Below, in pieces: positions 1 to 36,998 of a stretch of DNA of 64,000 nt (position 1 is the first letter of the stretch; each line of letters starts with the position of its first letter). The stretch is from positions 725,554 through 789,553 of the forward strand of contig JBAZYC010000001.1 in the NCBI GenBank assembly GCA_041659525.1. The letters are read 5' to 3'. A model generated the notes under the pieces. The model ran no database searches and was not told the DNA's origin. It saw nothing but the letters and a program-made list of their open reading frames with translations. A program made the position numbers and the translations under genes. This DNA comes from an archaeon (GTDB lineage Archaea > Iainarchaeota > Iainarchaeia > Iainarchaeales > JAAZKV01).

Positions 1-1
1 T

Positions 2-385
2 AAAGAATTTGGGGCTGAGGCTAAGCGAAGAATTATTCTTGGGACTTTTGCAAGAATGTCTGGTTATCGTGATGCTTATTATTTGAAATCAATGAGAGTG
101 AGAGCAAAATTAATTAATGAATTTAACGAGGCTTTCAAAAAATATGATTTATTAATTTGCCCAACTATGCCTACTGTTGCTCCGCGTTTTGATGAAATAG
201 AAAAATTAACTCCTCTACAAAACTTTGCAATGGATCTTTGCACTGTCCCAGCTAACTTAGCAGGACTTCCTCACATTTCTTGCAATGCTGGTTTTAGTAA
301 TAATCTTCCAGTTGGGATAATGGCTATTGCCCCTCACTTACAAGAAAAAAGACTTTACTCATTCGCTAGTGTGGTGGAAGCATGA
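2..385 (+). CDS. gatA: Glu-tRNA(Gln)/Asp-tRNA(Asn) amidotransferase subunit A, C-terminal part (gene begins upstream of the window)
   Basis: Translation (KEFGAEAKRRIILGTFARMSGYRDAYY...DLCTVPANLAGLPHISCNAGF...LPVGIMAIAPHLQE) matches the conserved C-terminus of amidase-family GatA. The frame is open to the window edge. Confidence 0.75.
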   Translation, partial: KEFGAEAKRRIILGTFARMSGYRDAYYLKSMRVRAKLINEFNEAFKKYDLLICPTMPTVAPRFDEIEKLTPLQNFAMDLCTVPANLAGLPHISCNAGFSNNLPVGIMAIAPHLQEKRLYSFASVVEA

Positions 386-873
386 GTAAGAAAAATTTAG
401 CTATCAAAATTAATTACAGAAGAGCAGTTATTAGTGATATTAATAATATTTTAGAATTAAACAAATCTCTTGTAGCGAGTCAAAAAAAATATACTTGGTA
501 TTATCAATTAAGAAAAGATTATTCAACTAACATGAAAAAATTTATTCGAAAAAGTATTGTTTCTAAAAATTCTTTTGTAGGAATTGCTTTGGATAATGAA
601 AAAATAATTGGTTATTGCAATGCTGAAGTAAAAAAAGCTAATTCTATTACTAAGTGGGGAAAAGAACTAAATTTAATAGATCTTTTTGTTTCTAAATATT
701 ATCGCAATAAAGGAATTGGTTCAAAATTATTTTCTTTTGTTGAAGAATTTGGGAAAAAAAAGAAAGCAACTTTAATGAATTTACAGGTTGTAGAAGGAAA
801 TAATTTTGCTGAAAAATTATATATTCAAAAAGGAATGGTTCTTTTTAAAAAAAATTATTTGAAGATGATTTAA
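382..873 (+). CDS. GNAT-family N-acetyltransferase
   Basis: 163 aa ORF whose start overlaps the gatA stop (ATGA). A GNAT-like core (…VGIALDNEKIIGYCNAEV…RNKGIGSKLFSFVEE…) is present. Confidence 0.55.
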   Translation: MSKKNLAIKINYRRAVISDINNILELNKSLVASQKKYTWYYQLRKDYSTNMKKFIRKSIVSKNSFVGIALDNEKIIGYCNAEVKKANSITKWGKELNLIDLFVSKYYRNKGIGSKLFSFVEEFGKKKKATLMNLQVVEGNNFAEKLYIQKGMVLFKKNYLKMI

Positions 874-875
874 TA

Positions 876-950
876 TGGAAGAAACAAAAGTAATGATTGG
901 GCTTGAGATTCACGCTTACTTAGGAACTGAAAGTAAATTATTTATATTTT
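876..950 (+). pseudogene. Diverged 5' fragment of a gatB-like gene (25 codons, MEETKVMIGLEIHAYLGTESKLF then stop)
   Basis: The peptide aligns with the N-terminus of the intact GatB at 2371 (MMIGLEVHAYLDTKSKLFCSC). It terminates after 25 codons, and nucleotide identity to the real gatB 5' end is only moderate. Confidence 0.5.
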
Positions 951-1271
951 AATTTTACTTTTTGTTTAATCTAATTTCTATTTAATTATCAGTTGTCACC
1001 TCCGCTTTGTGGAATTTTTTCGTTGGACTCTGCTTTTCTCGACTTAAACCTTTCCCCTTTGGGTCGCTGTTGCTAAAGGTTTAATGTCTCCAAAAGCAGC
1101 GGGGCCGTCCATGAAAAAATTCGTTTTTTGCGGAGGTGGCTCAAATGATTTTTTTAAATAATTTAAGTAAACCCTCAAAAGAGGAAATATTGTCAGTAAA
1201 AAGAATTGCAAGATGCAATCCTGATGATTTGGATTCAAGAGAACTTTGGGTTCTTGAACAATCTTTAGAAG

Positions 1272-2405
1272 GTGATGAAGATGATTGATTCATCGCCGGC
1301 AAGAAGGTTGGTTAGGTGTTTAAAAACGCCTAATTTGCAGTCTTTTACAGATACTATGCAATTCAGTAATTATTTGTTGAACATAGCTTTGCCTGATGAA
1401 AATCTTGAAAAAGTTTTTGCCACAGAGTTCCCTATTTATATAACAGGGGTGAATAAAATTCTTTCATCACTTGTTAATGAAATTAAAGAAAATACTACTC
1501 AAAATTCATTACAATTAATTGCTTCTGAATTAAAAAATGATTCTACTTCTGTGCGATGTTGGTTAACTGGGTATAATCCTACACCAATACTTAAAGCGTA
1601 CAAGATTCTTAAAATTTGGAAATCTGTTTGTGGAAAAACAGAGGTTGAGTTTGAAACAAAATGGGATTTTTTATTTCAAAATGTTAGTGGATATAATTCT
1701 AGACGTATGCCTAAAGTAAAATTAACTAAAAGTCTTTCAAATGATTTAGCTTATGTAATAGGATTTTTTCTTGCTGATGGGCACATAAAAAATGTTGATA
1801 AGTTAGTACAAAGAGGAAAATATCCTGAATACACAATTGCATTTTATGACAAATCAGCAGACTTTTTGAAAAAAATTGAGGCAATTTTTGTAAAAGAATT
1901 TTCAGCTAAATGCAACCTACATTATGCAGAAGATAAAAAAGGTAGTTGGTATTGTCTAAGGTGTACTTCAAAACCAATTCATAGATTTTTTATTGAAGTG
2001 TTGGGCTTGCCTTTCGGATATAAACAAGGAAGGGTTTGTGCTCCCGAAATAATAAAACAAGCTTCTGTTGATGCGCAGAAAGAATTTATCTCTGGTTTTT
2101 GCGATGGAGAGGGGTGTGTTGGTATTTCTACTAAAAATCCTTATTTTGAAGTTGCGCAAGTTTCATATACTGCTAATCCCCCTGAAATTTTGGTTTGGGT
2201 TAGTCAAAAATTAAATGAATTTGGGGTAAAAATATCAGTTCCTCAAAAAGGAGTTACTGTTTGGAGAATAAGAACCGCTTCCCAGAAAGTTATTAATAAC
2301 TATTATACAATAATTTCTTCAAGACATGTTGACAAAATACCAAAATTTGAAGAAGTAAAAAGGTTTTCTTATGGTTCAAGAAGTAGAGATGATGATAGGA
2401 CTTGA
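1272..2405 (+). CDS. LAGLIDADG-family homing endonuclease (double-motif, single-chain type), free-standing
   Basis: Two LAGLIDADG-like motifs: LAYVIGFFLADGHI (about 1740-1790) and EFISGFCDGEGCVGI (about 2085-2125). There is a 377 aa ORF with an extra roughly 150-aa N-terminal region. The 3' end overlaps the gatB start in another frame. Confidence 0.7.
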   Translation: MMKMIDSSPARRLVRCLKTPNLQSFTDTMQFSNYLLNIALPDENLEKVFATEFPIYITGVNKILSSLVNEIKENTTQNSLQLIASELKNDSTSVRCWLTGYNPTPILKAYKILKIWKSVCGKTEVEFETKWDFLFQNVSGYNSRRMPKVKLTKSLSNDLAYVIGFFLADGHIKNVDKLVQRGKYPEYTIAFYDKSADFLKKIEAIFVKEFSAKCNLHYAEDKKGSWYCLRCTSKPIHRFFIEVLGLPFGYKQGRVCAPEIIKQASVDAQKEFISGFCDGEGCVGISTKNPYFEVAQVSYTANPPEILVWVSQKLNEFGVKISVPQKGVTVWRIRTASQKVINNYYTIISSRHVDKIPKFEEVKRFSYGSRSRDDDRT

Positions 2406-3777
2406 AGTCCACGCATATTTGGATACAAAATCAAAACTTTTTTGTAGTTGTTCAACAGCATCAGCAGATGCTCCAAATTCTCAAACTTGTCCTCTGTGTA
2501 ATGGTCATCCCGGCGCAAAACCCGTTTTAAATGAAAAAGCAGTTGAGCTTGGAGTTAAAGTTGGTTTAGCTCTTGGTTGTACAATTAATGAAGATTTTTT
2601 CTTTTCAAGAAAAACTTATTTTTATCCTGATATGAGTATGAATTACCAAATTACTCAATACGAGGTTCCGGTTGCCCAAAATGGATTAGTTGTTCTTCCG
2701 AGTGGAAAAAAAGTTAGAATTAGAAGAGCGCATATTGAGTGGGATCCTGCTGCTTTAGTTCACCCTAATGGAATGGGTAAGAGTAATTACGTTTTAATTG
2801 ATTATAATCGCTCAGGATTACCTTTAATTGAAATTGTAACTGAACCAGATATTGATTCTCCAATTGAAGCAAGAGAATTCATGAACACCTTAGAAAATAT
2901 TTTAGGTTATTTGGGTGTGTTAAAACCTGATACTACGATGAAAGCGGATTGTAATATTTCTCTTAATGGAGGAAACCGAACTGAAATAAAAAATGTTTCA
3001 GGTTTTGCTGCTGCAGAAAAAGCACTTACTTATGAAATTTCTAGACAAAAACAGGAACTAAAAAATGGAAAAGTAATTGAGCAACACACAAGAGCATTTA
3101 ACGCTGATACTGGGATGACTACCGAATTAAGAAAAAAAGAAACTGAGGATGATTATGGTTATATTTTTGATCCAGATTTAGTAAAAGTTTCTCTTGGAAA
3201 AGATTATTTAATAAAAATAAAATCCGAAATGCCTGAATTACCTGAAGAGAAAGCGCAGAGATTGATGAAGCAATTTAATTTTTCAGAGTACGAAGCAAGA
3301 GTAATTTGTGGGAATTTTAATTTAGGAAAATTGTTTGATGAATTAGTATTGCAAAAAGCAAATCCCAATATTTCAGCTAAATTACTTACAAGAGAACTAC
3401 TTGCAGTAATGAATCATGATGCCCTTTCTTGGAGTGAGGTTTTAGTTAAACCAAGCGAGTTAGTTGAACTTGTAAAATTAATTGAGAGTGGAAAAGTAAC
3501 TGACAAGAACACAAAGCAGTCAATGATTAACTATATTTCAGGAGACAAATCTTCTCCTAAAGCTTTTTTAGAAAAAAACAATTTACTTATTTCGGAGAGT
3601 ATTGATATTGATTCAGTTATAACAAAAATCCTAGTTGCTAATGAAAAAGCGGTTGTTGATTATAAAGCGGGTAACGAGAAATCTCTTAATTTCCTTGCCG
3701 GTTTAGTTATGAGGGAAACTAAGGGAACAGTTAATCCTAGTAAAGTTCAAGAACTTTTAAAACAAAAACTTGCTTAA
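2371..3777 (+). CDS. gatB: Asp-tRNA(Asn)/Glu-tRNA(Gln) amidotransferase subunit B
   Basis: 468 aa. The N-terminus is MIGLEVHAYLDTKSKLFCSCS and the C-terminal GatB/YqeY-like tail is NFLAGLVMRETKGTVNPSKVQELLKQKL. The length fits GatB and not the roughly 620-aa GatE. The true start is probably the internal MMIGLE Met. Confidence 0.8.
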   Translation: MVQEVEMMIGLEVHAYLDTKSKLFCSCSTASADAPNSQTCPLCNGHPGAKPVLNEKAVELGVKVGLALGCTINEDFFFSRKTYFYPDMSMNYQITQYEVPVAQNGLVVLPSGKKVRIRRAHIEWDPAALVHPNGMGKSNYVLIDYNRSGLPLIEIVTEPDIDSPIEAREFMNTLENILGYLGVLKPDTTMKADCNISLNGGNRTEIKNVSGFAAAEKALTYEISRQKQELKNGKVIEQHTRAFNADTGMTTELRKKETEDDYGYIFDPDLVKVSLGKDYLIKIKSEMPELPEEKAQRLMKQFNFSEYEARVICGNFNLGKLFDELVLQKANPNISAKLLTRELLAVMNHDALSWSEVLVKPSELVELVKLIESGKVTDKNTKQSMINYISGDKSSPKAFLEKNNLLISESIDIDSVITKILVANEKAVVDYKAGNEKSLNFLAGLVMRETKGTVNPSKVQELLKQKLA

Positions 3778-3888
3778 CCAAGTTCTAAAAGTCATATTAT
3801 TGACTTCTAAGTTGAATTAGTAAAAACCTACTGAAGAATAGTATTAATTAACCCTTTTGTCATTAGTAATAATAGTATTAGAGGTGTT

Positions 3889-4197
3889 TTGATGTCGGCT
3901 CCGTGGGATTTTTTAAGAGACCCAGTAACTTGGGTAGGGATTATTGAACCAATAACTTTGTGGGTTCTGCTTTTAGTTTCAATTGCACTTTTTGGATTAG
4001 CTCTATTAGCTTTGAAGAAAAAGAGTTCTTCAAAACTAAAATATGTTGCTGGCGCCTTTGGATTATTTTTCCTGAAATCACTTTTAATGGTAATGGATAT
4101 TTATTTCTCGCCAGGAGAATTTATGAATAAAGCAATTTTAGGTTTCTTTGATTTATTAATCATGATTGGATTTTTCGTTGCTTTGTTTAGGAAGTAA
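3889..4197 (+). CDS. Small membrane protein (3 predicted TM helices)
   Basis: 102 aa made of hydrophobic helices; no recognisable family. Confidence 0.4.
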   Translation: MMSAPWDFLRDPVTWVGIIEPITLWVLLLVSIALFGLALLALKKKSSSKLKYVAGAFGLFFLKSLLMVMDIYFSPGEFMNKAILGFFDLLIMIGFFVALFRK

Positions 4198-4221
4198 ATT
4201 AAGAATGGAAATTATTGAGGG

Positions 4222-4816: not shown

Positions 4817-5320
4817 ATGAAAGTAGTTTTTATTGTTCCAAAAAATAATTTTCGTGATCAGGAGCTCTTTATTCCTAAAGTTTTGATTGCAAATAAAGGA
4901 ATTGAATGTGTAATCGCTTCAAAGTATGTTTCTTCTCTAAAAGGAATGACTGGTACTATTGTAGAATCTACTCTTGCTTTATCAAAAGTGGATAATAGTT
5001 TTGATGCTATTATCTTTATTGGCGGAGAGGGTGCTAGAGAATATTTTGAAGACGCGGAAGCTCTCGCTTTAGCAAAAAAATATTTTGAAATGAATAGAGT
5101 GGTTGCAGCTATTTGTATTGCGCCTAGCATTTTAGCTAACGCTGGAATTTTGAACGGGAAAAAAGCGGTTTGCTTTGCTTCTGAAATGAGTAACTTAACT
5201 TCAAAAGGGGCAATTTGTCCTGGTGGCCCAATAATGGTTGATGGTAAAATAATTACTGCTGCTGGTCCTCTTGTAGCAAAACAATTTGGGGAAGAAATAG
5301 TTAAAGCACTAAAAAAGTGA
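4817..5320 (+). CDS. DJ-1/PfpI family protein
   Basis: 167 aa. The nucleophile-elbow region AAICIAPSILANAGIL and the DJ-1/PfpI-like fold pattern …IIFIGGEGA… are present. Confidence 0.6.
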   Translation: MKVVFIVPKNNFRDQELFIPKVLIANKGIECVIASKYVSSLKGMTGTIVESTLALSKVDNSFDAIIFIGGEGAREYFEDAEALALAKKYFEMNRVVAAICIAPSILANAGILNGKKAVCFASEMSNLTSKGAICPGGPIMVDGKIITAAGPLVAKQFGEEIVKALKK

Positions 5321-7945: not shown

Positions 7946-9295
7946 TTAGTTTCCGCAGTAAAATGTTGCTGTTAAGGTACCTTCTCGAGGCAGATTATTT
8001 AGACTGTTATCAGAATAATAAATAACATTTCCTGCCACCATTCCACCCATGCAATTTTCGTCAGAGAAAATGGAATCTTTTGCAAGACAAGAAATAAATC
8101 TACACTTTCTAGTATCACTACCTACTATCCAATGAATTAGTGTGCTTCCCATCATATTGGGGTGAAGACCATCTTTGTAACTTAAAGTTAAAACAAATGT
8201 ATTCTCATCTATTTTTTCCTGATTAGTTGTTGCGACAAAATCTAAGGGGGCATTCAAATCAGAAAATTGTTGACTATGCCCATTCGTTGTCACAATGGAT
8301 AATATCGCTGAGCTATACGGTGTTTTTTGTAAATAACAATAGTTTGAATCTGTCGGAATTGGAAATTTATTCAAATTTCTGTCATAGGATGAAAAATAGT
8401 CACAACTTGTACTTGTCATAGACCCATTGTTTGACACAACAGCATCTTTTGGGGATTGTAAAACAATATTATTAAGCAACTGAAAATTAATGTCATATAC
8501 TGCATTATAACTAACTTTATCCAATGTGAGAGGAGCTTGATAATTTTGGTCGACAGCATAAAACACGCCTATTTCATAATCAGTGCTTATTACATTGAGA
8601 CTTACGGACGGAAATATAAAAAAGAAAAGTAATATTGATATTACAAAAGAGCCAATAAAGGTTAATCCTGCTGTGAAAAGTAATTTTTTGTGGAAGGTGT
8701 TTTTTATTTTTGGGAAATACATAAGCCCTAGGAAAAAAGCTAGAAGACCTAAACCGACTGCCATATAAAAAACAGCGGTTAGCAATAGAGACGGCAAATA
8801 ATAGGAGACATTACTTCTAAAGATATTTATAAAACCAAACAATCCAAATGCAAAACCCAAAACAACAACTAAACTCGCCCCTATCCAAATAAGTAATTGT
8901 TTAGCATCTCTTTTATTACCAATTAGAAATACTAACAACCAAATAAAAACAAAATGAAGTACAACATACAAAGCTGAGGTTGTACTAAATAACAATTTTA
9001 CCTCCTCCAGATTTCCAATTAATCCTTTTAGTACTAATGAACTACCAAATGCCAAAAAGTAAGTTATAATTGTAAGTAAAATTGCTGGGAGTAATGCTTT
9101 GTTTAATAAGTTACTAATGGTAAACAAATCTTTGCCCTTTAAACCCAAAAATACCCAGCTATACCAAACAATAAATACAATTAACGAAACGACAAGTACT
9201 ATTTCAGGAATTGGGGCGAAGAAACTAATTGCATAAGCCATTAAGTCGTCTGCGAAACTCATATATTGAGATAGATTGGAATAGTTTAAGAACAA
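7946..9295 (-). CDS. Membrane protein with N-terminal multi-TM region and C-terminal extracytoplasmic domain
   Basis: 449 aa. About 8 hydrophobic helices are followed by a Cys-containing soluble domain; no family recognised. Confidence 0.4.
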   Translation of the reverse strand: MFLNYSNLSQYMSFADDLMAYAISFFAPIPEIVLVVSLIVFIVWYSWVFLGLKGKDLFTISNLLNKALLPAILLTIITYFLAFGSSLVLKGLIGNLEEVKLLFSTTSALYVVLHFVFIWLLVFLIGNKRDAKQLLIWIGASLVVVLGFAFGLFGFINIFRSNVSYYLPSLLLTAVFYMAVGLGLLAFFLGLMYFPKIKNTFHKKLLFTAGLTFIGSFVISILLFFFIFPSVSLNVISTDYEIGVFYAVDQNYQAPLTLDKVSYNAVYDINFQLLNNIVLQSPKDAVVSNNGSMTSTSCDYFSSYDRNLNKFPIPTDSNYCYLQKTPYSSAILSIVTTNGHSQQFSDLNAPLDFVATTNQEKIDENTFVLTLSYKDGLHPNMMGSTLIHWIVGSDTRKCRFISCLAKDSIFSDENCMGGMVAGNVIYYSDNSLNNLPREGTLTATFYCGN

Positions 9296-9394
9296 TTATG
9301 TTTAATTATTTTGCTATAATCTAATTGTTGAACCCAATATCTTTATTTTACTTTTAATGAGAACTAGTTTTCCTTCTTTTCTTTTAAAATTAGT

Positions 9395-10579
9395 TTATTC
9401 TTTTTCTTTAACGAATTTTAGCATTATTATTGCAACTATGGTTAATCCTAGTGATAAAATAAATGGGGTTGTTTTTCCCATGGTGTCCCAAAGAATTCCT
9501 GCTATTAAAGAAGCAGGAAGTGCGCATAGGCCTATTACCATTTGGTAGCCTCCTAGTGCGCTTGCTCTGAATTTCTTTGGAGCGAGTTCTGAAACAAAAG
9601 TTGCTTGGATTGGGCCTAGTGCGGCGTGGTGGAGTCCGTAGAATACAAATGTTAGTAAAATCGCCCACCATGCGTTTGATGAAATAAATATTATGCAAGT
9701 AATTGCCCAAAAGAGTAGGGCTATGTACATTACTTTTTTTCGCCCAATTTTGTCAGCGAGTTTTCCAAATGGAAGAGAAAAAGTTGCTGCGAGAACTACA
9801 TAAACTAAATAAAGAATTGGGATGAAAGTTAATTCGTATCCTGTTTTACTTGCGAATACTAAAAGGAATGAATAACTAAATGAACCTAGTGCAAATACTG
9901 CGCTTAGTGCGAGGAACAGTTTGTAATTATTACTAAGGTTTTTGAATTTTATTCCTTTGTAGAGTTTTATTTTATCATTCTTTTTTTCTTTTATTATAAA
10001 ATAAACTAGTGCTGCACTTATTACTGATGGGATTGCTGCGAGCATAAAAAAAGTGGTGTAACCAAAATAGTTTATTAAAAAAATACATAAGAGTATTCCA
10101 AATACTCCTCCTAATTTGTCAAGTCCTTTTATTAATCCAAAATTGTGTCCTCTATTTTTGTCAGTAGAGTGATCTGCCACAAGTGCGTCTCTTGGAGCGT
10201 CACGAATTTTTCCTGCTCTATCAATTATTCTAAATGGAATAATCATTGGCCAACTTGTGGAAATAGCATACCCAATTCTTGAGATTGCTCCTATTAAGTA
10301 ACCTAACCAAATGAATACTTTTCTTTTTCGTAATCTATCAGAAGCATATCCGCTTGCGGCTTGCGAGAGTGAAACTAGCGCATCTCCTAGTCCATCAACT
10401 AGTCCAAGTACGGACATGTTTGCGCCTAGAACGGTTGTAAGAAAGAGAGGCCAAATAGGGTAAATCATGTTCGCCCCAAAATCGTTTAAGAGAGAAGCAA
10501 TTCCAAAAGTCCAAACGGTTTTTTTGCTTTCGGAAAGAATTTTAGGGTTTTTTCGGGTTAAATTTTTTTTCTTTTGCAT
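9395..10579 (-). CDS. MFS-family transporter
   Basis: 394 aa with about 12 TM segments. MFS-like loop motifs: GYASDRLRKRKVF, and after TM6 a second repeat, ADKIGRKKVMY. Confidence 0.65.
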   Translation of the reverse strand: MQKKKNLTRKNPKILSESKKTVWTFGIASLLNDFGANMIYPIWPLFLTTVLGANMSVLGLVDGLGDALVSLSQAASGYASDRLRKRKVFIWLGYLIGAISRIGYAISTSWPMIIPFRIIDRAGKIRDAPRDALVADHSTDKNRGHNFGLIKGLDKLGGVFGILLCIFLINYFGYTTFFMLAAIPSVISAALVYFIIKEKKNDKIKLYKGIKFKNLSNNYKLFLALSAVFALGSFSYSFLLVFASKTGYELTFIPILYLVYVVLAATFSLPFGKLADKIGRKKVMYIALLFWAITCIIFISSNAWWAILLTFVFYGLHHAALGPIQATFVSELAPKKFRASALGGYQMVIGLCALPASLIAGILWDTMGKTTPFILSLGLTIVAIIMLKFVKEKE

Positions 10580-25409: not shown

Positions 25410-28400
25410 TTGGAATTGACTAAATTTTTTAGTAATCTTTCAAAAGAAAGCGTGGGCATTGCTGGAGGAAAAGGAGCTTCTCTAGGGGAAATGACTCGCG
25501 CTGGTATTCCAGTTCCTAATGGTTTTGTAGTTCTCTCTGATTCTTTTGAAAAGTTTTTAGAGGAAACAGATTTAAATGTTGAAATTGATGCAATTTTAGA
25601 TTCAGTGAATCACAACGAGATGCAATCAATTGAGAATGCTTCTGAAGAAATTAAAGCTCTTATTCTTAATGCGAAAATGCCAATTGATATTGAAAAAGAA
25701 ATAAAAAAGGATTTCAAAACTTTGAATGCAAAATTTGTTGCGGTTCGTTCTAGTGCAACTAGTGAAGATTTTTCTAGTGCTGCTTGGGCTGGACAACTTG
25801 ATAGTTTTCTTAATACTAAAGAAAAGGATTTACTTGAAAAAGTAAAACATTGTTGGGCTTCTCTATTTACTCCTAGAGCTATTTTTTACAGATTTGAAAA
25901 AGGACTTCACACTACAAAAATTAGTGTGGCTGTTGTAGTTCAAAAAATGGTTAATTCAGAGATAAGCGGAATAGCTTTTTCTGTTCACCCCGTAACCCAG
26001 GATAGGAATCAATTAATTATTGAAGCAGGATTTGGTTTAGGAGAAGCAATTGTTTCAGGTAGTATTACTCCTGATTCTTATGTGGTTGAAAAGAATCCAA
26101 GAAGAATAATTGACAAGAATATTAGTGATCAAGAAAGAGGGTTGTTTAAAGTTGAAACTGGCGGAAACGAATGGAAGAGTACTAAAGAAAATGGGGTAAA
26201 GCAAAAGCTTTCAGATAAGCAAATAATGGAGCTTAGTGAAATAATTTTGAGAATAGAAAAACATTATGGTTTTCCTTGCGATATAGAATGGGCATTTGAA
26301 GGGGGAAAATTCTTTATTGTCCAATCAAGACCAATTACCACTCTTTTAGATAAAAGTAATGATAACGAAATGCCTAGCGTAGTTAAAACAAAAAAAGTTT
26401 CAAGTAAATCAAAAGAGGATGAGATTCAAAAGTTTGTTTCATTGATTAATTCGCAACCACTTGATGTTAAGCAAGCCAAATGTAGTGTTTTGGCCGCTGA
26501 CATAGTTTTTGGGGTTTATTCTAATAAAGTAGTTTTCAATGAAAATTATTCACCCTTGATTCATCCGTATAAGTGGCCTAATTTGCAGCAAGTAATTCTT
26601 GAAGGAAGAATGAAAGGGGTTGAAAGAGTTATTTGGACAAATGCGATTAAGAACAAAAAAAAGTTTACAAGAGTTTTGAGTGAAGGTTCTGCTTTGCATA
26701 AAAAAATAGTGCGTATGAGTATTCCTGATTCACAACTATCAAAACTTTCTGAGCCACAGCTCTTAAAATATTTTGAGGAATTAGTTGAATTAACTAAAAA
26801 ATGGTGGGTGTATGCTGCGATAGGGGAAGATAAGGGGCTTGTGGTTGAAGAAAAATTAATTCCTTTGTTAGTTAAAAATCATAATTTAACTCCTCATGAA
26901 GCACAAGAATATTCTTCTGACATGGCTTCTCCCAAGGGGCAATCAGTGTTCTCAAAAGAAAGAACTGCTTTTTTAGAACTCTGTTTGATTCTTTCAAAAA
27001 ATAAAGCTCTTTTTAATTTAATAAAAAAAGGAGAGTCTTTACCTAAAAATAAGTTTTCTTTATTTTCAAAAAAAATAAATGATTATTCTAAAAAGTATTT
27101 TTACTCAAGAACAGATTTTTATGGAGGTCAAAAAATAAATGATTTTACTTTACCAAAATTAGTATTTGACGAATTAAATAAAACTACTTTATCAAAATTA
27201 AAACACGAGTTTATTGTTTTTAAAACTTCTGAAAAAGAATTAGAAAAAAGGCAAAAAGCGTGGTCAAAACGAGTTTCTTCAATTACAAAAGAAGAAAAAG
27301 ATTATTTGTGGTATTCTGAGGTAATGCACACTTGGATTGATGAAAGAAAAGTTTGTATGGTGTCCCAGTTTTATTATTTGTTTTCAGTTCTTGAAGAACT
27401 TTCTTTGAGAAGAAATATTAGTTATGACAAGCTTGCCTTACTAACTATAAGTGATTTAAAAAAATTTATCAAGGACGGAACAATTGATTTTGATTTAATC
27501 AAAAAAAGAGGAGAAGGAGCAGTTTTTGTTTATGAAAAAAACAAGCCTGTTGTAGAATTTTTTGAAAAAGACGCGGATTTGTTTAATGAAGCAATAAATA
27601 GGCACAGTTCTTCAGAAACAGTTGCTGGAACAATTGCAAGTAAGGGTAATGGCGAAAAAATTATTGTTGGTCGCGTAAAAATAGTTCATGATCCGTTTAA
27701 GGATTCTTTTGCTGAAGGGGAAGTATTAGTAACTACTATGACTCGTCCAGAGTTCGTACCTATAATGAAGAAAGCCATTGCGATTGTTACTGATGAAGGT
27801 GGACTTACCTCTCATGCTGCAATAGTATCAAGAGAGCTTGGGGTGCCTTGTATAATTGGAACAAAGAATGCTACAAAACTACTCAAGGACGGAGATTTGA
27901 TTGAAGTTGATGCAAATACAGGGGTTGTGAGACTAATAGATTCTACTAAAATTGAATCTTTAGTAAAAAATAATTTGGTTTTTGAAAAATCTATTACTCG
28001 TGATTGGGGAATGATTTATGCTGAAATTTGGCACAAAGTTTTCACCAGTGAATTCAAAAAGCAACTTGGTTGGGGTTATACAGAAGTTGTGTTTGAGGGT
28101 AAAAATAATTCTGTGACTATTTATCGTGCACCAAGTGAACATTTGGATGGAATGCGAGATTTTATTCTTGCTAATCTTGACAAGGACAAAGATTGGTTAA
28201 GGAATCATGCAAAAATAGTAAAAAAAATGGTGAACAAAGCAATTTCTTGGATGAATTATTTAGAAACCAAAAAGTTGTCAAATTATTCTTCAAAAGAACT
28301 AGCAATTATTTTTGATGATTTTGTTAAAATGAATATAGAACTAGGCCCGCGTTTTATTATGATGCTTTGGTTTCCAATTCAAATGGAGAAACATAATAAA

Positions 28401-31400
28401 GCAAATCAATACAAAGATGATGTTAAAGTAGCTATAGAAACTAGGGAAGAAATTGAAAAAATTGGTCCACTAGTTGATACTCTTGCAAGAAAAATTGCTG
28501 ATGAAGTTTCGCTTAGGGCTAAACTAGATAATTCTTTTTCTCGTTTTATTAGTATTGATCAAATAGATAACTATTTGAAGAAAAAAATAGTTCCTGATAG
28601 CAAGAACTTATCTTCAAGAAGCAAATATTTTATTGTTACTAATGAAGGAATATTACCAGAAGAATTTGAAAATTATTTAGCAAGAAAGAATTATTCATTA
28701 AAGAAAATTGATTTATCCAATATAACTACTATTAAGGGAAATCCTGCTTATCCTGGAGTGGTTAGGGGTATTGTAAAAATAATTAAGAATAAAGATTCTT
28801 TTGGAAAATTAAATGAAGGGGAAATTTTAGTTACTGGAATGACTACTCCTGATTTTTTACCAGTGATGAAGAAAACAGCTGGTTTCATCACTGATGAGGG
28901 CGGAATCACTTGTCATGCTGCAATAGTTGCTCGTGAACTAAAAAAGCCCTGCATAATAGGAACAAAAATAGCTACCGAAGTCCTAAAAGACGGTGATTTG
29001 GTAGAAGTTGATGCAAACAATGGAATTGTAAAAATCCTTGAGAGTTCAAAAGTAAAAGTTGAAAAGAGCAAAAGTGATTTGTCCCCAGGGCTTTGGAAAG
29101 ACTCTTTTCGTTGGAAATATGAGGCTTGGCCATTTTTCACATCTGTGTATTTGAAAGCTTCTTTGCCTGGGGAATCAAGTTATTATGTTCCGTGGCCAGA
29201 TTTTGTTAACAAGTTTGAAAATGGACATTTGGAAGCTTATTTGCCAAAAAAAGAAATTCTTTCTAAAGGTAAAGTTGAAATTGATGAATTAATTAGAGGG
29301 GATGATTATTTTGCAAAAGAATTTAGGTTACTTTTGAATAGAATACATAAAGCGATAAGTAATTGTGAAAAAGTAAGAAAGGACAAAAATTATTCTGAAC
29401 TAAATTTATGGTGGCCAGAGGTACAAAGCGTTCTTTCAGATGTTGCAGCACTATTATTTGGTTTTGATTATACTTTAAATGATTGGATGAAGGAGATGCA
29501 AACAAAAGATCCTGAATTGTTTAGTTCTATTTCATCTAGTATAAAAGAAATCAAACCATCTTTTATTAATGAAGCAATAAATGAAGTAGTTTCTTTAGTA
29601 AACAAATACCCTAATGACTTTGATAAAGTTCATTCTAAATTTATTGAAAACTTTTCATGGTTTCAGAATTCTTATGCTGGGGAGTTTGATATTACAAAAG
29701 AATGGCTCAGAAAATTTTATGAAGAGAATAAATCAAAAGTGAATCAAAATCATTCTAGCCCTAAAGCTTCTTCTCCAAAAAAATATAAATTACTATGTGA
29801 ACTTGCAAGTGAGGCAGTTTCGTTTAGAGATGACAAGAAAAAATTGCTTTTAATTGCAGTTGAGTTAATGAATGATTGGCTAAGAGAAAATTGCGAGAAA
29901 AATTCATTGAATTTTGATGAAATGAAATGGTTAAGCGTTGATGAAGTAGTTGAGGCAATTAGTGGAAACAAAAAAATTACTGCTTATGCAAAAAAATGCG
30001 CTTCTCAAAACAAAAGAATTGGTTTGATGGTTGAAAGGGGATATGAAGATGTTTCTGAAGATTTTTTTAACGAAATTGGCGAAGTTTTTTTGGGTTCGGG
30101 CAAGATAATTGAATTAAGAGGGATGACTGGGAATAAAGGAAAAATAGTTGGTAAAGCCAGAGTAATTCTTGATGCAAAAAAAGAGGAATATAAGCTTCAA
30201 ATGGGGGATATTTTAGTTACCTCCATGACTCGTCCAGAGTTTTTACCATTAATGAATAAAGCTGCGGCTTTTGTTACTGATGAAGGTGGAATAACTTGTC
30301 ACGCTGCGATTGTTGCAAGAGAAATGAACAAGCCTTGTATAATTAGTACCAAAACTGCCACTCAAATAATTAAAGATGGAGATTTGATTGAAGTTGATGC
30401 GAATACTGGGATTGTTAAAATCCTTGAGAGTTCAATTAAAAAAAAAAGTTTAACTGAGCCAATTGAATTAAGCAAGATTTATTCTCGAGAAAAAAGTCTT
30501 TTGTATTATAGAATGTGGAGTGATTCTGACAGAAAGGGGTATGAAAAATATTTGAATCACAAAGTAAAAAATAATTTGTTTATAATTTCTAAAAGTGGGG
30601 AAAAAGGGAGTGTTTGGTATAGTTTAGAAGAACTCAAAGAAATTGAAAAAAAGTTTTTAGAAATATATGAAGCTAATCCAAAAATTATTCAAGAAATCCT
30701 AAAAGATATAGCGGCCTCTTGGAAAGTTCTTCAAAAATACCTTTCTTCAGAAATATCTTCTCTAAATGATTTTAAAAAATATTATTCAAATTTAGTTGAT
30801 TTTTGGGCTGGTTGGAACACAATAATTAATGTTCCTGATTATTCTTGGGTTTTGGAAAAAGATAAGCAAAGGGTTTTGGATTCTAGAAAAGAAACAGAAA
30901 ATTACACCGAACAGCTTTCTTCTCTATTAACAAATTTTGTTGAAAAAGAGTTCCCTTCTCTAAAGGAACACTCTTTTTTTATTGATGTTGAAGAATTCCT
31001 TAACCCAAATCCGAATATAATGGAAAAGCTTCTAGAAAGAAAAAATGGTTGTTTTTTACTTAATGGCAAGCTTTATCCAAAAAATGAACTTGAAAATGTT
31101 TTGAATAAAAATAATTTGAAACTAGGGGTTGAATCAAATCCATCTTTGCAAGAAAGTTCAAAAGAAAAGTATTTTTTTGCAAGGGAAAGACCTTGGCTCT
31201 TTAATCCGGTTTATTGGAATCCGGTTGTTCAAACAAGTAAAGAAATAGAAGCAATTTATGGTACTTTTCTTTCAGTAGAATGGAATATTTACAAAGAAGG
31301 GCGAATGAGAGTAATAATTCCTCAAGAGGAGTGGGATAGAATTGGAGTATTTATTGCAAACAAAATGTTTTCTGATAAGCAATATTTTGATAATTTAGTA

Positions 31401-32576
31401 TCTAAAACTAAAAGTGCTAAAAAAGAAATTGATTCTTTTTTAATAAAATCTAAAAAACAGGATTATTCAAAATGTTCTTTAAAAGAGTTGAATTCTTTTG
31501 CTAAAGAGATTTATAGTTTGTTTATGAAGTATGATTCTGCAAGTGTATTTTCTTGGTTTATTGCAGGGGATTTGTTTAAAGAAAAAGTGCATAACAAATT
31601 AGGGTTAAGTTGGGAAGATTTTGAGATTGTTTCACTCCCTGAAGAAAAAACTTTTGTTTCAAAACTTGATGAAGATTTGCTAAAAGCATCTCTTTTGAAA
31701 AATCCCACTCTTCAAGCAGCAAATCTTTCAAATAAATACTATTGGGTGCCTTTTGGATATGATGGACCAAGTATTTGGGGCAAAGAGTACTTTTTGGAAA
31801 AAATAAATTCTATTAAAGATAATACAAAATTAGTAAAAAAAGAGTTAGAGAAAATAAAAGAGAATGATTTGAATAAGAAAAAAAAGATAAAAATTATATT
31901 AAACAAAATTTCAAAAGATAAACAAGCAATTGAGCTTTTGAAAAGAATGCATTATTTGACGCTTTGGACTGATGAGCGAAAAATGCTTGAGTTTCAGTTA
32001 TTTTATTATTATAATTTGGTTCTTGAGAGAATTGGTAAATTAACAGGGTTTTCAGTTATTCAACTCAAACATCTTACTGTTGAAGAACTTTTGTTGATTT
32101 CTCAAGAAAAAAATAGTTTAATTCAAAAAGCAAATGATAGAATCAATAATCCATTTCTTACTATTATAAAAAAAGGAAAAGTAGATTTTTGTACAAATGA
32201 AGAATATAATGAAATGTATGAGAAGATTGAGAATCAGCTTTCATCAACTGAACTAAAAGGGACAGTGGCTTGTAAAGGGCCAAAGGAAAAATATGTGGCA
32301 AAAGTAAAAGTGGCTTCTTCTCCAAAAGATGGTGAAAAGTTACTTGAAGGAGAATTTTTAGTAGCCTCAATGACTACTCCTGAATATATTGTTTCAATGA
32401 AAAAAGCTATTGGGTTTATTACTGATGAGGGTGGAGTAACTTGTCATGCTGCAATTGTTGCAAGAGAAATGAACAAACCTTGTGTTATTGGCACAAAAGT
32501 TGCTACTAAAGTTCTCAAAGATGGCGATTTGGTAGAGGTAGATGCAAATACAGGGATAATTAAGAAGATTTCTTAA
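25410..32576 (+). CDS. Giant (2388 aa) PEP-utilizing-enzyme family protein: N-terminal PPDK/PEP-synthase-type ATP-grasp nucleotide-binding domain plus four swivel phosphohistidine domains
   Basis: N-terminus GIAGGKGASLGEMTRAGIPVPNGFVV…VAVRSSATSEDF…CDIEWAFEGGKFFIVQSRPIT is the PEPS/PPDK/rifampin-phosphotransferase ATP-binding domain. There are four copies of …TDEGG[LIV]T[SC]HAAIV[SA]RE[LM][GNK][VK]PC[IV]IGTK…DGDL[IV]EVDAN[TN]G[IV]…, with His codons at 27812, 28914, 30300 and 32445. Unknown helical regions of about 300-450 aa precede each copy. It is a single uninterrupted ORF with an apparent TTG start. Confidence 0.8.
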   Translation: MELTKFFSNLSKESVGIAGGKGASLGEMTRAGIPVPNGFVVLSDSFEKFLEETDLNVEIDAILDSVNHNEMQSIENASEEIKALILNAKMPIDIEKEIKKDFKTLNAKFVAVRSSATSEDFSSAAWAGQLDSFLNTKEKDLLEKVKHCWASLFTPRAIFYRFEKGLHTTKISVAVVVQKMVNSEISGIAFSVHPVTQDRNQLIIEAGFGLGEAIVSGSITPDSYVVEKNPRRIIDKNISDQERGLFKVETGGNEWKSTKENGVKQKLSDKQIMELSEIILRIEKHYGFPCDIEWAFEGGKFFIVQSRPITTLLDKSNDNEMPSVVKTKKVSSKSKEDEIQKFVSLINSQPLDVKQAKCSVLAADIVFGVYSNKVVFNENYSPLIHPYKWPNLQQVILEGRMKGVERVIWTNAIKNKKKFTRVLSEGSALHKKIVRMSIPDSQLSKLSEPQLLKYFEELVELTKKWWVYAAIGEDKGLVVEEKLIPLLVKNHNLTPHEAQEYSSDMASPKGQSVFSKERTAFLELCLILSKNKALFNLIKKGESLPKNKFSLFSKKINDYSKKYFYSRTDFYGGQKINDFTLPKLVFDELNKTTLSKLKHEFIVFKTSEKELEKRQKAWSKRVSSITKEEKDYLWYSEVMHTWIDERKVCMVSQFYYLFSVLEELSLRRNISYDKLALLTISDLKKFIKDGTIDFDLIKKRGEGAVFVYEKNKPVVEFFEKDADLFNEAINRHSSSETVAGTIASKGNGEKIIVGRVKIVHDPFKDSFAEGEVLVTTMTRPEFVPIMKKAIAIVTDEGGLTSHAAIVSRELGVPCIIGTKNATKLLKDGDLIEVDANTGVVRLIDSTKIESLVKNNLVFEKSITRDWGMIYAEIWHKVFTSEFKKQLGWGYTEVVFEGKNNSVTIYRAPSEHLDGMRDFILANLDKDKDWLRNHAKIVKKMVNKAISWMNYLETKKLSNYSSKELAIIFDDFVKMNIELGPRFIMMLWFPIQMEKHNKANQYKDDVKVAIETREEIEKIGPLVDTLARKIADEVSLRAKLDNSFSRFISIDQIDNYLKKKIVPDSKNLSSRSKYFIVTNEGILPEEFENYLARKNYSLKKIDLSNITTIKGNPAYPGVVRGIVKIIKNKDSFGKLNEGEILVTGMTTPDFLPVMKKTAGFITDEGGITCHAAIVARELKKPCIIGTKIATEVLKDGDLVEVDANNGIVKILESSKVKVEKSKSDLSPGLWKDSFRWKYEAWPFFTSVYLKASLPGESSYYVPWPDFVNKFENGHLEAYLPKKEILSKGKVEIDELIRGDDYFAKEFRLLLNRIHKAISNCEKVRKDKNYSELNLWWPEVQSVLSDVAALLFGFDYTLNDWMKEMQTKDPELFSSISSSIKEIKPSFINEAINEVVSLVNKYPNDFDKVHSKFIENFSWFQNSYAGEFDITKEWLRKFYEENKSKVNQNHSSPKASSPKKYKLLCELASEAVSFRDDKKKLLLIAVELMNDWLRENCEKNSLNFDEMKWLSVDEVVEAISGNKKITAYAKKCASQNKRIGLMVERGYEDVSEDFFNEIGEVFLGSGKIIELRGMTGNKGKIVGKARVILDAKKEEYKLQMGDILVTSMTRPEFLPLMNKAAAFVTDEGGITCHAAIVAREMNKPCIISTKTATQIIKDGDLIEVDANTGIVKILESSIKKKSLTEPIELSKIYSREKSLLYYRMWSDSDRKGYEKYLNHKVKNNLFIISKSGEKGSVWYSLEELKEIEKKFLEIYEANPKIIQEILKDIAASWKVLQKYLSSEISSLNDFKKYYSNLVDFWAGWNTIINVPDYSWVLEKDKQRVLDSRKETENYTEQLSSLLTNFVEKEFPSLKEHSFFIDVEEFLNPNPNIMEKLLERKNGCFLLNGKLYPKNELENVLNKNNLKLGVESNPSLQESSKEKYFFARERPWLFNPVYWNPVVQTSKEIEAIYGTFLSVEWNIYKEGRMRVIIPQEEWDRIGVFIANKMFSDKQYFDNLVSKTKSAKKEIDSFLIKSKKQDYSKCSLKELNSFAKEIYSLFMKYDSASVFSWFIAGDLFKEKVHNKLGLSWEDFEIVSLPEEKTFVSKLDEDLLKASLLKNPTLQAANLSNKYYWVPFGYDGPSIWGKEYFLEKINSIKDNTKLVKKELEKIKENDLNKKKKIKIILNKISKDKQAIELLKRMHYLTLWTDERKMLEFQLFYYYNLVLERIGKLTGFSVIQLKHLTVEELLLISQEKNSLIQKANDRINNPFLTIIKKGKVDFCTNEEYNEMYEKIENQLSSTELKGTVACKGPKEKYVAKVKVASSPKDGEKLLEGEFLVASMTTPEYIVSMKKAIGFITDEGGVTCHAAIVAREMNKPCVIGTKVATKVLKDGDLVEVDANTGIIKKIS

Positions 32577-32639
32577 TTTCTCTAAAAATCAATCCTTAAA
32601 ACATCTTTTGTTGTTTTTATTGTGTGTTGAAGTGTTGTT

Positions 32640-34067
32640 ATGATTGTTCAAAATCTTCCTTTGAATCCTAAAGCTGAATTATTTAGGTGGGGTCCGATTC
32701 AGGTACATCCGTTTTATCTTGATCATATTGAAATGATGCATTCTGGAGAGTTTGAAAAAGTTTATCCGAATTATTCGTGGCCAGAATCGCTTTTGTTGTT
32801 TAAAGGAAACGATTTGCTTTGGTTAAATGAGTTTTCCGAGCTTTGGGCAGTTGGAAAAAGAACTTTTATTGATTTAATTTTTGAAAAAAAACAATTTTTA
32901 AAAGTAAGAAAGAGCTATGAATCTGCAAGAAAAAAAGTTGTTGTTTTTGAAAAAAAATTGGATAATACCAAGATTGAACTACTATCGGATAAAGAATTGG
33001 GTTTGCTTTCAGCAAATTTTAGTAAGGTTTGGAATTCTTTTTGGGTTCATGGTTTGATTCCTGAGCTTGCGAATTGCGGGGCGGACAAGTATCTTGAGGA
33101 AAAGCTAAAAGAAGTAGTTTCTGATTCTACTGAAAGATTGGCTGTAATGGAAGCACTTACTGCTCCTGAAGAGCTTTCTTTTTATCAACAAGAAGAAATT
33201 GAGCTTTTAGAGACAAAAAACCTAAAAAAACACAGGGATAAGTATTTTTGGATAAAAAATGGGTATGGGCATGTAGTTGACCTTGATGTTGAATTTTTTG
33301 TTGAAAGAAAAAAGGGTTTATCAAAAGGCCTAAAGAAACAAATAACTGCTAGATTGAATCAGGCAAAAGAAAAAAAGAAAGTTGTTCAAAAAAAGTATCA
33401 CTTATCAAAAGAAATAATGGAAATAGCTAGAAAAATTGTTTATTGTATTGTTTGGCAGGATGAAAGAAAAAAGAATATTGAACGTTTTTTACATTATAAA
33501 TATTTGTTGCTTGCTGAATGTTCAAGAAGAAAAGAAATTTCTAAAACTGATTTACTTACGCTTTTCTCTTTTGAACTTGAACAATTGCTTTTAGGAAAAT
33601 CTTTTGATGAAGAACTTAAAAAAAGAAAAAAAAGCTTTGCGTTGATTCTTGCTTCAAAAAGATTAGAGTTTATTTATCCTCCTCTTGCTGACGAGTATTG
33701 GGGTGTTTATTCTGAAAAAGTTGATGGACAAATAAAAGAAATAAAAGGGATAGTTGCAAGTACTGGAGAAAATCCTTTAATCAGTGGGCGAGTTAGAATT
33801 ATTCTTGATCCTCATAAAGTATCTGATTTTAAGGAAGGTTCAATTCTTGTTGCTCCAATGACTAGTCCAGATTATATTTATGTAATGAGAAAATCAATTG
33901 CAATTATAACTGATACAGGGGGATTGACTTCTCATGCTGCAATAGTTTCAAGAGAGCTTGGAGTACCTTGCATTGTTGGAACTAAAATTGCTACCCAAGT
34001 TTTCAAAGATGGAGACTTGGTAGAAGTTGATGCGAATAAAGGGATTATTAGAAAACTCAAGAATTGA
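32640..34067 (+). CDS. PEP-utilizing-enzyme swivel-domain protein (unknown N-terminal module + 1 phosphohistidine domain)
   Basis: 475 aa. C-terminal …TDTGGLTSHAAIVSRELGVPCIVGTK…DGDLVEVDANKGII (His codon 33933). The N-terminal module is similar to inter-swivel regions of the upstream giant gene. Confidence 0.7.
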   Translation: MIVQNLPLNPKAELFRWGPIQVHPFYLDHIEMMHSGEFEKVYPNYSWPESLLLFKGNDLLWLNEFSELWAVGKRTFIDLIFEKKQFLKVRKSYESARKKVVVFEKKLDNTKIELLSDKELGLLSANFSKVWNSFWVHGLIPELANCGADKYLEEKLKEVVSDSTERLAVMEALTAPEELSFYQQEEIELLETKNLKKHRDKYFWIKNGYGHVVDLDVEFFVERKKGLSKGLKKQITARLNQAKEKKKVVQKKYHLSKEIMEIARKIVYCIVWQDERKKNIERFLHYKYLLLAECSRRKEISKTDLLTLFSFELEQLLLGKSFDEELKKRKKSFALILASKRLEFIYPPLADEYWGVYSEKVDGQIKEIKGIVASTGENPLISGRVRIILDPHKVSDFKEGSILVAPMTSPDYIYVMRKSIAIITDTGGLTSHAAIVSRELGVPCIVGTKIATQVFKDGDLVEVDANKGIIRKLKN

Positions 34068-36991: not shown

Positions 36992-36998
36992 CATTTAG

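Follow-up and report, generated by a model that had tools for sequence, protein, structure and literature searches.

Mobile endonuclease open reading frames (ORFs) that replace the ends of genes were reportedly described by Paquin et al. in 1994. In fungal mitochondria, such mobile ORFs (mORFs) replace the 3' ends of atp6 in Allomyces macrogynus and of atp6, atp9, cox2 and nad3 in Glomus sp., and the identities are 91% between the native end and that of a relative and 63.5% between the two copies (PMC3630166). In T-even phages, free-standing endonucleases move by "intronless homing" with co-converted flanks, and T4 intron homing can be one-sided, with long resection and microhomology-mediated illegitimate repair of the double-strand break; hairpins sequester the ribosome-binding site (RBS) of the endonuclease genes in T4 I-TevI, segB and mobE, in an arrangement with an internal promoter (PMC2988022). 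In the work described here, a LAGLIDADG homing endonuclease gene (HEG) located between gatA and gatB was analyzed in a stretch of 64,000 nucleotides (contig JBAZYC010000001.1) from a DPANN/Diapherotrites-like archaeal chromosome, and this whole stretch is referred to as the window. DPANN archaea have small genomes and rely on gatCAB for Asn/Gln-tRNA.

The preferred reading of this locus, which is given a probability of about 80%, is that positions ~944-2517 are a mobile HEG cassette that homed into gatB and brought with it a leader, a small ORF (sORF) of about 45 amino acids, the HEG itself and about 49 codons of a donor gatB. The region was read from an ORF listing over positions 1-4200 of the + strand, on which all parts of the locus lie, together with Pfam, Rfam, RNAfold and BLASTN comparisons. 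Along this strand, the 3' end of gatA is followed by a GNAT acetyltransferase gene, a 25-codon ORF, an AT-rich stretch, a GC-richer region, a 47-amino-acid ORF, a 377-amino-acid ORF and a full-length gatB. Every element that an earlier note on this DNA had described, when it proposed a LAGLIDADG ORF inserted between gatA and gatB, is among these, and the stop of the HEG (2403-2405) does overlap an intact gatB (2371-3777), whose protein as a whole matches Pfam GatB_N (6.8e-89) and GatB_Yqey (6.7e-32). The first 35 nt of gatB overlap the 3' end of the HEG in another frame, and the gatB start codon falls within the last 11 HEG codons. The 25-codon ORF, the HEG and gatB occupy three different reading frames.

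The 25-codon ORF (875-952) starts 2 nt past the GNAT stop and encodes MEETKVMIGLEIHAYLGTESKLFIF followed by a stop codon. Only codons 1-23 (875-943) belong to gatB; the junction at 943/944 is followed by two junk codons and the stop. The identity of this stub to the real gatB start had been put at about two-thirds, which is close to the measured 62% (43/69, ungapped) and to the 67% (34/51) found for its MIGLE..KLF core. A much better match is found in the closest relative, L012, with a GatB (P0015) that is 90% identical to that of the window and with gatC, gatA, a GNAT gene and gatB arranged contiguously and without a HEG. Positions 878-943 of the stub are 92.4% identical by BLASTN to positions 2560-2625 of the L012 gatB, and a comparison by eye gave 4 mismatches in 63 nt. 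At the protein level, the core MIGLEIHAYLGTESKLF of the stub peptide agrees at 17/17 residues with P0015 and P0017, the closest HEG-less GatBs, against 14/17 for the N-terminus of the resident GatB. The stub is not part of some unrelated conserved gene, which would have spoken against the earlier note.

The comparison with L012 also reveals where the foreign DNA begins and ends. The window is 87% identical to L012 at the nucleotide level over 2-420, 92.4% over 878-943 and 85% over 2472-4001, whereas the segment from 944 to ~2470 has no detectable match. Within gatB, codons 1-51 carry 10-13 mismatches per 30 nt and the next ~110 codons carry 0-3 per 30 nt (Fisher p = 1e-15). Expressed differently, about 37% of the nucleotides of codons 1-49 are mismatched (~60-65% identical), compared with ~11% from codon 50 on (89% identical). 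Since the stub matches the L012 start and resident codons 1-49 diverge from it, the stub can be taken as native and the block ~944-2517 as foreign. Judged from these alignments, the stub is the displaced original start of the gatB of this lineage, and the block, including the first ~49 codons of the working gatB (2371-2517), came from elsewhere. The native remainder of gatB follows at 2518-3777, with 89% nucleotide and 93-94% amino acid identity to the L012 gatB. Aligning the fragment and gatB with relatives, as the earlier note had advised, hence places the mosaic boundaries at 943/944 and ~2517. The note had ended the element at 2405, and the HEG does stop there, but the foreign tract runs a further ~147 nt into gatB, to about 2517.

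Precise empty sites are present in close relatives, either as a GNAT-gatB junction (L012, L017/L018) or as a gatA-gatB junction (L013-L016). The genes gatC, gatA and gatB are contiguous and HEG-less in L013-L016, and L017/L018 carry aspS-gatC-gatA-GNAT-gatB with no HEG upstream of gatB. Together with the sharp mosaic breakpoints, these empty sites strongly support one of the two alternatives of the earlier note, namely that a free-standing HEG came in together with the co-converted flank of a divergent donor gatB.

The same mosaic is found in a second invasion, at locus L005, with a different left junction. Here the order is gatC-gatA-GNAT, a 37-codon stub, a minus-strand ORF, hairpin, sORF, HEG and gatB. 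Up to codon 35, this stub agrees with the gatB start of L017, which has no HEG, at 98% of the positions (2 mismatches in 94 nt), and the working gatB of L005 differs from that of L017 by 30-40% through about codon 55 and by ~10% after it. The left junctions therefore differ (codon 23 in the window, codon 35 in L005), and the right boundaries coincide in the codons for HPG(S/A)KPVLN. A third stub is annotated on the P0003 contig, where a 47-amino-acid GatB_N product comes right behind gatA and precedes three minus-strand genes, an sORF, a HEG and gatB. In the remaining HEG-bearing loci, tblastn searches for gatB stubs gave none besides those of the window and L005. In addition, the first ~50 gatB codons show a higher identity than the remainder of gatB in two pairs of HEG-bearing loci (79% versus 67% for L002/L008, and 81% versus 71% for L005/L011), and thus this segment travels with the HEG. 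For annotation, this means that the 25-codon ORF deserves to be flagged as a relic, and the first ~50 codons are best left out when gatB trees are built for these lineages.

The HEG (1272-2405) is free-standing and encodes a monomeric, double-motif LAGLIDADG endonuclease of 377 amino acids when read from a GTG start, or 376 from the ATG at 1275 that is used in the NCBI annotation. Pfam LAGLIDADG_3 matches in two stretches (3.9e-11). Motif 1 is LAYVIGFFLADGH (residues 159-171; nt 1746-1784) and motif 2 is FISGFCDGEGCV (residues 272-283; nt 2085-2120). An alignment of the homologues bears directly on whether catalytic residues are present, as absent residues would have spoken against an endonuclease. 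Both acidic residues are conserved: D169 of the LADG in motif 1 (nt 1776-1778) is invariant in 13/13 homologues, and E280 of the GFxDGE in motif 2 (nt 2109-2111) is found in 11/11 sequences that cover the position. The AlphaFold2 model (pLDDT 83, pTM 0.82) and its Foldseek comparison agree on the duplicated alpha-beta-beta-alpha-beta-beta-alpha fold. Foldseek ranks endonuclease domains of archaeal inteins, I-Tsp061I and I-DmoI highest, with a TM of 0.70-0.75 on the target; this range holds for I-DmoI, and the value for I-Tsp061I taken by itself is 0.62 (probability 1.00). An hmmsearch against the PDB gave the TliVMA intein (2e-8) and I-DmoI (1.7e-5). Residues ~30-140 form an extra helical N-terminal domain that is confidently predicted, and a Pfam scan of this domain gave nothing credible. 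On motifs and model, the endonuclease looks active.

Homologues of the HEG were searched with a word index over a collection of 5.8 billion proteins, which gave 13 homologues at 41-73% identity, and scans of genomes and metagenomes with a HEG profile added four further loci. A profile search of 1.84 billion cluster representatives gave 33 proteins at E <= 1e-30 and 375 at E <= 1e-10; many of these are full-length (~320-340 amino acids), so the HEG architecture is part of a larger family. The genomic context was recovered at 11 places, namely from DNA at ten loci (L002 and L003 are near-identical) and from annotation alone for the P0003 contig. At all 11 (L001, L002/L003, L004-L011 and the P0003 contig), the HEG is located immediately upstream of a full-length gatB and overlaps its start, except for a possible short gap in L006. 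In L006, the homologue (378-1454) is split into two ORFs (378-686 and 732-1454), and is either a decaying copy or an assembly error. In L007, gatC, gatA, HEG and gatB are joined by 4-nt overlaps with nothing between gatA and the HEG. Among the 13 word-index homologues, no HEG counterpart is seen for about 25 GatBs with 74-90% identity to that of the window, and within this close set the absence was confirmed by genomic context only for L012-L016. The closest HEG homologue found by the word index is paired with a GatB of 73% identity. The distribution of the HEG therefore appears patchy in these sequence collections. Across loci, the identities of HEG and GatB are 73/74, 58/68, 51/50 and 45/47%.

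The foreign block starts with an AT-rich stretch (944-994) without homology to L012, followed by a structured leader RNA (995-1140). The GC content is 44-46% at 1001-1150, compared with 20-30% in the flanks. Within this region, GTCACCTCCGC at 995-1005 pairs with GCGGAGGTGGC at 1130-1140 and closes a rod-like hairpin of 146 nt, and thus the complementary GC-rich segments that had been pointed out from the letters alone are real according to RNAfold. The predicted energy is -64.6 kcal/mol (z = -6.7), and 0/200 shuffled sequences were as stable. The closing helix P1 pairs an anti-Shine-Dalgarno (anti-SD) sequence CACCTCC (997-1003, in the 995-1005 arm) with a Shine-Dalgarno (SD) sequence GGAGGTG (1132-1138, in the 1130-1140 arm), and helices P2-P5 form the core rod (1011-1122). 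The description of this region as a structured spacer was right as far as a folded RNA is concerned and incomplete otherwise, as the region holds a conserved leader RNA plus an ORF of 47 amino acids (1145-1288).

The hairpin is conserved in L002/L003, L005, L008 and L017, and in part in L011, where the contig ends, in genomes of 32-49% GC. In an alignment of five sequences, 90.6% of the cells are paired, compared with 43-58% when the partners are slid. Nine pairs are changed on both sides, and the covariation is 0.23 against at most 0.12 for slid partners. In the core helices, G-U pairs are far more numerous than C-A mismatches, a sign that the RNA is made from the + strand. Covarying equivalents of the P1 anti-SD/SD helix are present in L002, L005 and L008. 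An Rfam cmscan of positions 600-2800 at E <= 10 gave only five chance-level matches (miRNA, snoRNA, sRNA and a viral tRNA-like pseudoknot). Within the 64-kb window the hairpin occurs once, and it is therefore neither a repeat in several copies nor a miniature inverted-repeat transposable element. Two exact-pattern scans of viral contigs with core motifs gave, in one case, two chance matches outside a hairpin context (L019, L020) and, in the other, none. The leader is a conserved archaeal RNA that had not been catalogued before.

A TATA-like box, TTTAATTA, is located at 981-988, about 30 nt upstream of the hairpin core. TATA-like hexamers are found 24-30 nt upstream of the base of P2 in 5/5 cassettes, including the GC-richer L002 and L008, and this position suggests that the box may be a promoter. 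The sequence GGAGGTG occurs only once in the window, in the hairpin of the cassette. A strong SD precedes 1/46 of the long ORFs of the window, and SD 4-mers precede 8/46. As GGAGGTG is unique and strong SDs are rare, the cassette brings its own strong but occluded translation signal.

The SD lies 5-8 nt upstream of the start of the sORF (1145-1288), which has the pattern ...P..EI......L..RELW[IV].... Homologues of 42-47 amino acids are present in L002, L005, L008, L011 and L017, and L001 holds a 3' fragment at a contig end. In all these loci, the stop of the sORF overlaps the start of the HEG as ATGA or TAATG. The numbers of synonymous and nonsynonymous codon differences are 5:3 for L005/L017 and 9:12 for L005/L011; the overlap and this bias towards synonymous changes together suggest that the peptide is real and that it is translationally coupled to the HEG. 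No credible match came from Pfam scans of four sORFs. This conserved small ORF is, alongside the meganuclease candidate and the leader RNA, a product of the analysis.

The leader and the sORF are also found in front of another ORF. In L017, a second hairpin with a 46-amino-acid sORF (8793-9407) is located 3.5 kb downstream of the intact, HEG-less gatB, and this module is 84% identical at the nucleotide level to L005 3628-4002. It is followed by an ORF of ~390 amino acids, of which the first ~35 residues match the L005 endonuclease and the remainder diverges. A search for this ORF elsewhere gave only a partial match of 84 amino acids (P0134). As far as these alignments go, the leader, the sORF and the N-terminal segment can be regarded as a portable module of at least two different ORFs. 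A divergently transcribed ORF of 119 amino acids precedes the second cassette of L017, and the P0003 cassette likewise has an ORF of this length and orientation in front of it; a Pfam scan of the L017 copy gave nothing credible. A wider and rather unlikely proposal is that a portable 5' module, made up of the hairpin with its sORF and some 35 codons from the start of the HEG, is shared by a larger family of free-standing archaeal LAGLIDADG cassettes, and that in cassettes of the L005 subclade a divergently transcribed ORF may be part of it too. These cassettes would target different genes, routinely rewrite the ends of essential genes and drag cargo such as the hypervariable GNAT between DPANN lineages. 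If this were true, the strongly conserved core of the leader would do more than occlude the SD; it might, for instance, bind the endonuclease or the sORF peptide in autoregulation or in the homing reaction.

A mechanism can be proposed for the way in which the cassette entered. The endonuclease would cut a HEG-less gatB in the region of the Cys/Zn loop (...C..CLGHPGSKP, about codons 36-55). The right end would be repaired by homologous recombination from a HEG-bearing donor gatB with a crossover at the HPG(S/A)KPVLN codons: the downstream end would invade the donor allele, and the gatB start, the HEG, the sORF and the leader would be copied. The left end would be resected and joined illegitimately because the gatA-gatB interval is hypervariable and without homology. 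The outcome would be native codons 1-23 stranded after the GNAT gene, native codons ~24-49 lost, and a hybrid but complete gatB. Expression of the cassette may be controlled by the leader, since the SD of the sORF in the 3' arm of P1 would be occluded by the anti-SD 130 nt upstream. Transcription from the TATA-like box would start at the base of P2 and give the cassette its own transcripts without the anti-SD arm; the arm, and with it the silencing, would be confined to transcripts that read through from the gat operon. The sORF and the HEG, with overlapping stop and start, are probably translationally coupled.

The target region was examined in 96 close GatBs, of which 83 read C..CLG.PG. HEG-bearing alleles differ at the L-G positions in 4/4 cases (CNG, CMG, CLS and CIS), compared with 9/92 of the others (Fisher p = 2e-4), and these substitutions are suggestive of target-site immunity. 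A prediction that a non-LG motif marks the presence of a HEG was not confirmed in L021 (P0089), which reads CLAHPG and is HEG-less; L021 is possibly an ex-HEG allele. The gatB of L021 has an N-terminal extension of 15 residues, and a GNAT N-terminal stub of 27 amino acids (4926-5010) lies between its gatA and gatB, which may be the scar of a deletion in this interval. In another set of GatBs (P0023, P0035, P0041, P0048, P0050, P0054, P0055, P0058, P0060, P0061, P0065 and P0096; 636-705 amino acids), a PF04073 tRNA_edit (YbaK/ProX-like) domain, which is an aminoacyl-tRNA editing domain, sits right after KLFCSCxT, in the same Zn-loop region as the HEG junctions.

Other explanations have to be weighed against homing. 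As its second alternative, the earlier note had offered an interruption of gatB near codon 25 by a group I intron or an intein that has since degenerated, and an archaeal bulge-helix-bulge (BHB) intron can be added to this list; the stub would then be exon 1. In archaea, rRNA introns and inteins are the classical home of LAGLIDADG genes, the closest structures that have been solved come from there as well, and a structured RNA does lie between the stub and the ORF. The sequence nevertheless does not support this idea. The suggested check with Rfam covariance models gave only the chance-level matches mentioned above and no group I or group II intron family, and gatB is uninterrupted. Pfam finds LAGLIDADG only and no Hint domain, and the frame of the ORF differs from those of the stub and gatB. 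No BHB-like pairing is seen, as the best duplexes that the junction regions form have -9.3 and -6.5 kcal/mol, which does not exceed shuffled sequences (mean -10.7, standard deviation 3). The hairpin has the shape of a plain rod with an SD sequence at its end, and gatB is complete without splicing and has its own start. A duplicated exon would also not predict that the stub is native and the downstream copy foreign. An intron or intein origin is rejected as far as the sequence goes and is the least probable of the explanations considered.

Two further explanations accept the anatomy and deny the HEG its role, and both are regarded as improbable. According to one of these, the LAGLIDADG protein has been domesticated: it would be an immobile, vertically inherited and host-serving partner of gatB, such as a DNA/RNA-binding regulator or a maturase-like protein analogous to WhiA, and the stubs would stem from local rearrangements in a hypervariable gatA-gatB interval. 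The position upstream of gatB is indeed invariant in all loci down to 38% identity, the HEG identity tracks that of GatB, only a single copy in the 11 places is frameshifted (L006), the gatB start codon lies within conserved C-terminal HEG codons, and the structural matches include WhiA (TM 0.70 on the target). In WhiA, however, the catalytic acidic residues are not conserved, and both are conserved here. The closest GatB relatives (74-90%) are without the gene and their empty sites are precise, the sharp gatB mosaic in two lineages indicates a recent horizontal arrival with the gatB start of a donor, and the same leader and sORF module serves another ORF elsewhere. The other explanation, with an equally small chance, is that the cassette and the gatB 5' end were exchanged at a recombination-prone interval by ordinary homologous or illegitimate recombination, or by other mobile machinery, and that the LAGLIDADG gene was carried along without being active or relevant. 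The interval between gatA and gatB is indeed a hotspot whether or not a HEG is present, as seen from GNATs of 29-38% identity in near-identical genomes, loci without a GNAT (L013, L015), the GNAT stub of L021 and the varied cargo. Against this, the ORF and repeat listings showed no integrase or transposase gene and no terminal repeats, with the 146-nt hairpin as an internal inverted repeat; the endonuclease is under purifying selection with intact catalytic residues across 38-73% divergence; the insertion is always at the same gene; the breakpoints of two events cluster at one of the most conserved GatB motifs; and HEG-bearing alleles are substituted at that very motif.

The homing of a cassette into gatB remains the preferred reading, and several observations weigh against it or limit it. 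The target site is deduced from the breakpoints and the allele association, and the latter involves only four HEG-bearing alleles from two to three lineages and is no more than suggestive. The shared right boundary could mark the first stretch conserved well enough for recombination instead of the cut site. That HEG and GatB diverge in parallel would likewise be expected if the two had long been inherited together vertically, with losses along the way. Stubs are missing from L002, L008 and the second clade (L004, L006, L007, L009 and L010), and in L007 the HEG is operonic; therefore, some insertions were not one-sided. The GNAT gene beside the stub has also been replaced in both pairs of HEG-bearing and HEG-less loci (29-38% amino acid identity compared with 94-96% for GatA), and this replacement is not explained by a simple homing model. 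With respect to the leader, the anti-SD arm of P1 is missing in the L017 cassette and the hairpin was not found in the second clade of shorter HEGs, so that occlusion of the SD is not universal. Also, the core of the hairpin is conserved far beyond what occlusion of the SD needs, and this conservation suggests that the leader RNA probably has a further function.

The surroundings of the cassette are variable as well. The native gatA 3' end (2-385; Pfam Amidase 1.2e-26) is 87% identical to that of the HEG-less L012 at the nucleotide level, with a GatA identity of 94%. The GNAT gene (382-873; Pfam Acetyltransf_1 4.3e-12), which is context outside the cassette, is hypervariable in the window and at the corresponding positions of L012 (2042-2551), L005 (2511-2984) and L017 (3522-4004). 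GNAT proteins are 29-38% identical where GatA and GatB are 93-96% identical (38% between the window and L012), the body of the gene (window 420-878) has no nucleotide homology to L012, and no GNAT is present in the gatA-gatB interval of L013-L016. These differences suggest that the GNAT gene in this tRNA-amidotransferase operon has undergone xenologous replacement or diversifying selection. In other HEG-bearing loci (L002, L008, L009, L010 and L004), the interval between gatA and the HEG is occupied by unrelated cargo, which differs among lineages (an inositol phosphatase, a 239-amino-acid ORF, CorA and Ldh2, an HD protein and an AP endonuclease, or a membrane protein), and the interval thus has the character of a hotspot for insertions. 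With ARAGORN, tRNA genes were not detected in the vicinity of the locus. Further along the window, at 25410-38069, an ORF of 2388 amino acids and the three next ORFs (475, 975 and 356 amino acids) share eight repeats of ~232 nt, which are 63-76% identical and 1.1-2.1 kb apart, and these ORFs look like a tandem family of large repeat-containing proteins.

In the literature library that was searched, no paper links LAGLIDADG, gatB and archaea, and the known systems with which the locus can be compared are found elsewhere. With respect to the enzyme itself, the best sequence and structure matches are the rRNA-intron endonucleases I-DmoI and I-Tsp061I and the endonuclease domains of the archaeal VMA and PI-PfuI inteins, which have the same monomeric double-motif fold and D/E catalytic pair. 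Unlike these enzymes, the HEG of the window is located outside an intron or intein, has an N-terminal helical domain of ~140 residues without a Pfam match, and has a protein-coding gene as its presumed target. It is a candidate new meganuclease, with the codons for GatB C..CLGHPGSKP as its predictable target.

In the way it appears to move, the HEG resembles the seg and mob genes of T-even phages, which also lie outside an intron or intein and next to the presumed target gene. Co-conversion of flanks, a patchy distribution and a homology-free junction after resection are shared features, and so are an RBS sequestered in a hairpin and a possible internal promoter. The differences are that the enzyme is a LAGLIDADG and not a GIY-YIG or HNH endonuclease, that its host is a cellular archaeal genome, that the hairpin is a sequence-conserved rod of 146 nt and not a short stem, and that an sORF lies between the hairpin and the HEG. 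By analogy with these systems, the facts fit the homing of a free-standing endonuclease with one-sided homologous repair.

The closest counterparts are the mORFs of fungal mitochondria. In both cases, a LAGLIDADG (or, in mORFs, GIY-YIG) ORF comes with the foreign end of a housekeeping gene, the hybrid gene is intact, and the native gene end is left as a displaced duplicate; in the window, these parts are the native stub (875-943), the foreign end (2371-2517) and the endonuclease ORF between them. Even the identities are similar, with ~91% and ~63% in mORFs and 92-94% and 62-67% in the cassette. Unlike mORFs, the cassette replaces the 5' end of the gene with the HEG upstream, as in a mirror image, and it must therefore supply the translation start of gatB, which it does inside the 3' codons of the HEG. 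Its HEG is also not fused in frame to the host gene, its host is an archaeal chromosome and not an organelle, and it carries a conserved leader RNA and an upstream sORF. The locus thus offers a clean, breakpoint-resolved case in which a homing endonuclease would have rewritten the start of an essential translation-fidelity gene on an archaeal chromosome, and it indicates how, in DPANN archaea, a housekeeping gene can be replaced in part by horizontal transfer that a selfish element drives. The principle is known, and what is new is the archaeal chromosome, the 5' end of the gene and the RNA/sORF module, by which gene-end replacement, known from fungal mitochondria, is extended to another domain of life and to the other end of the gene.

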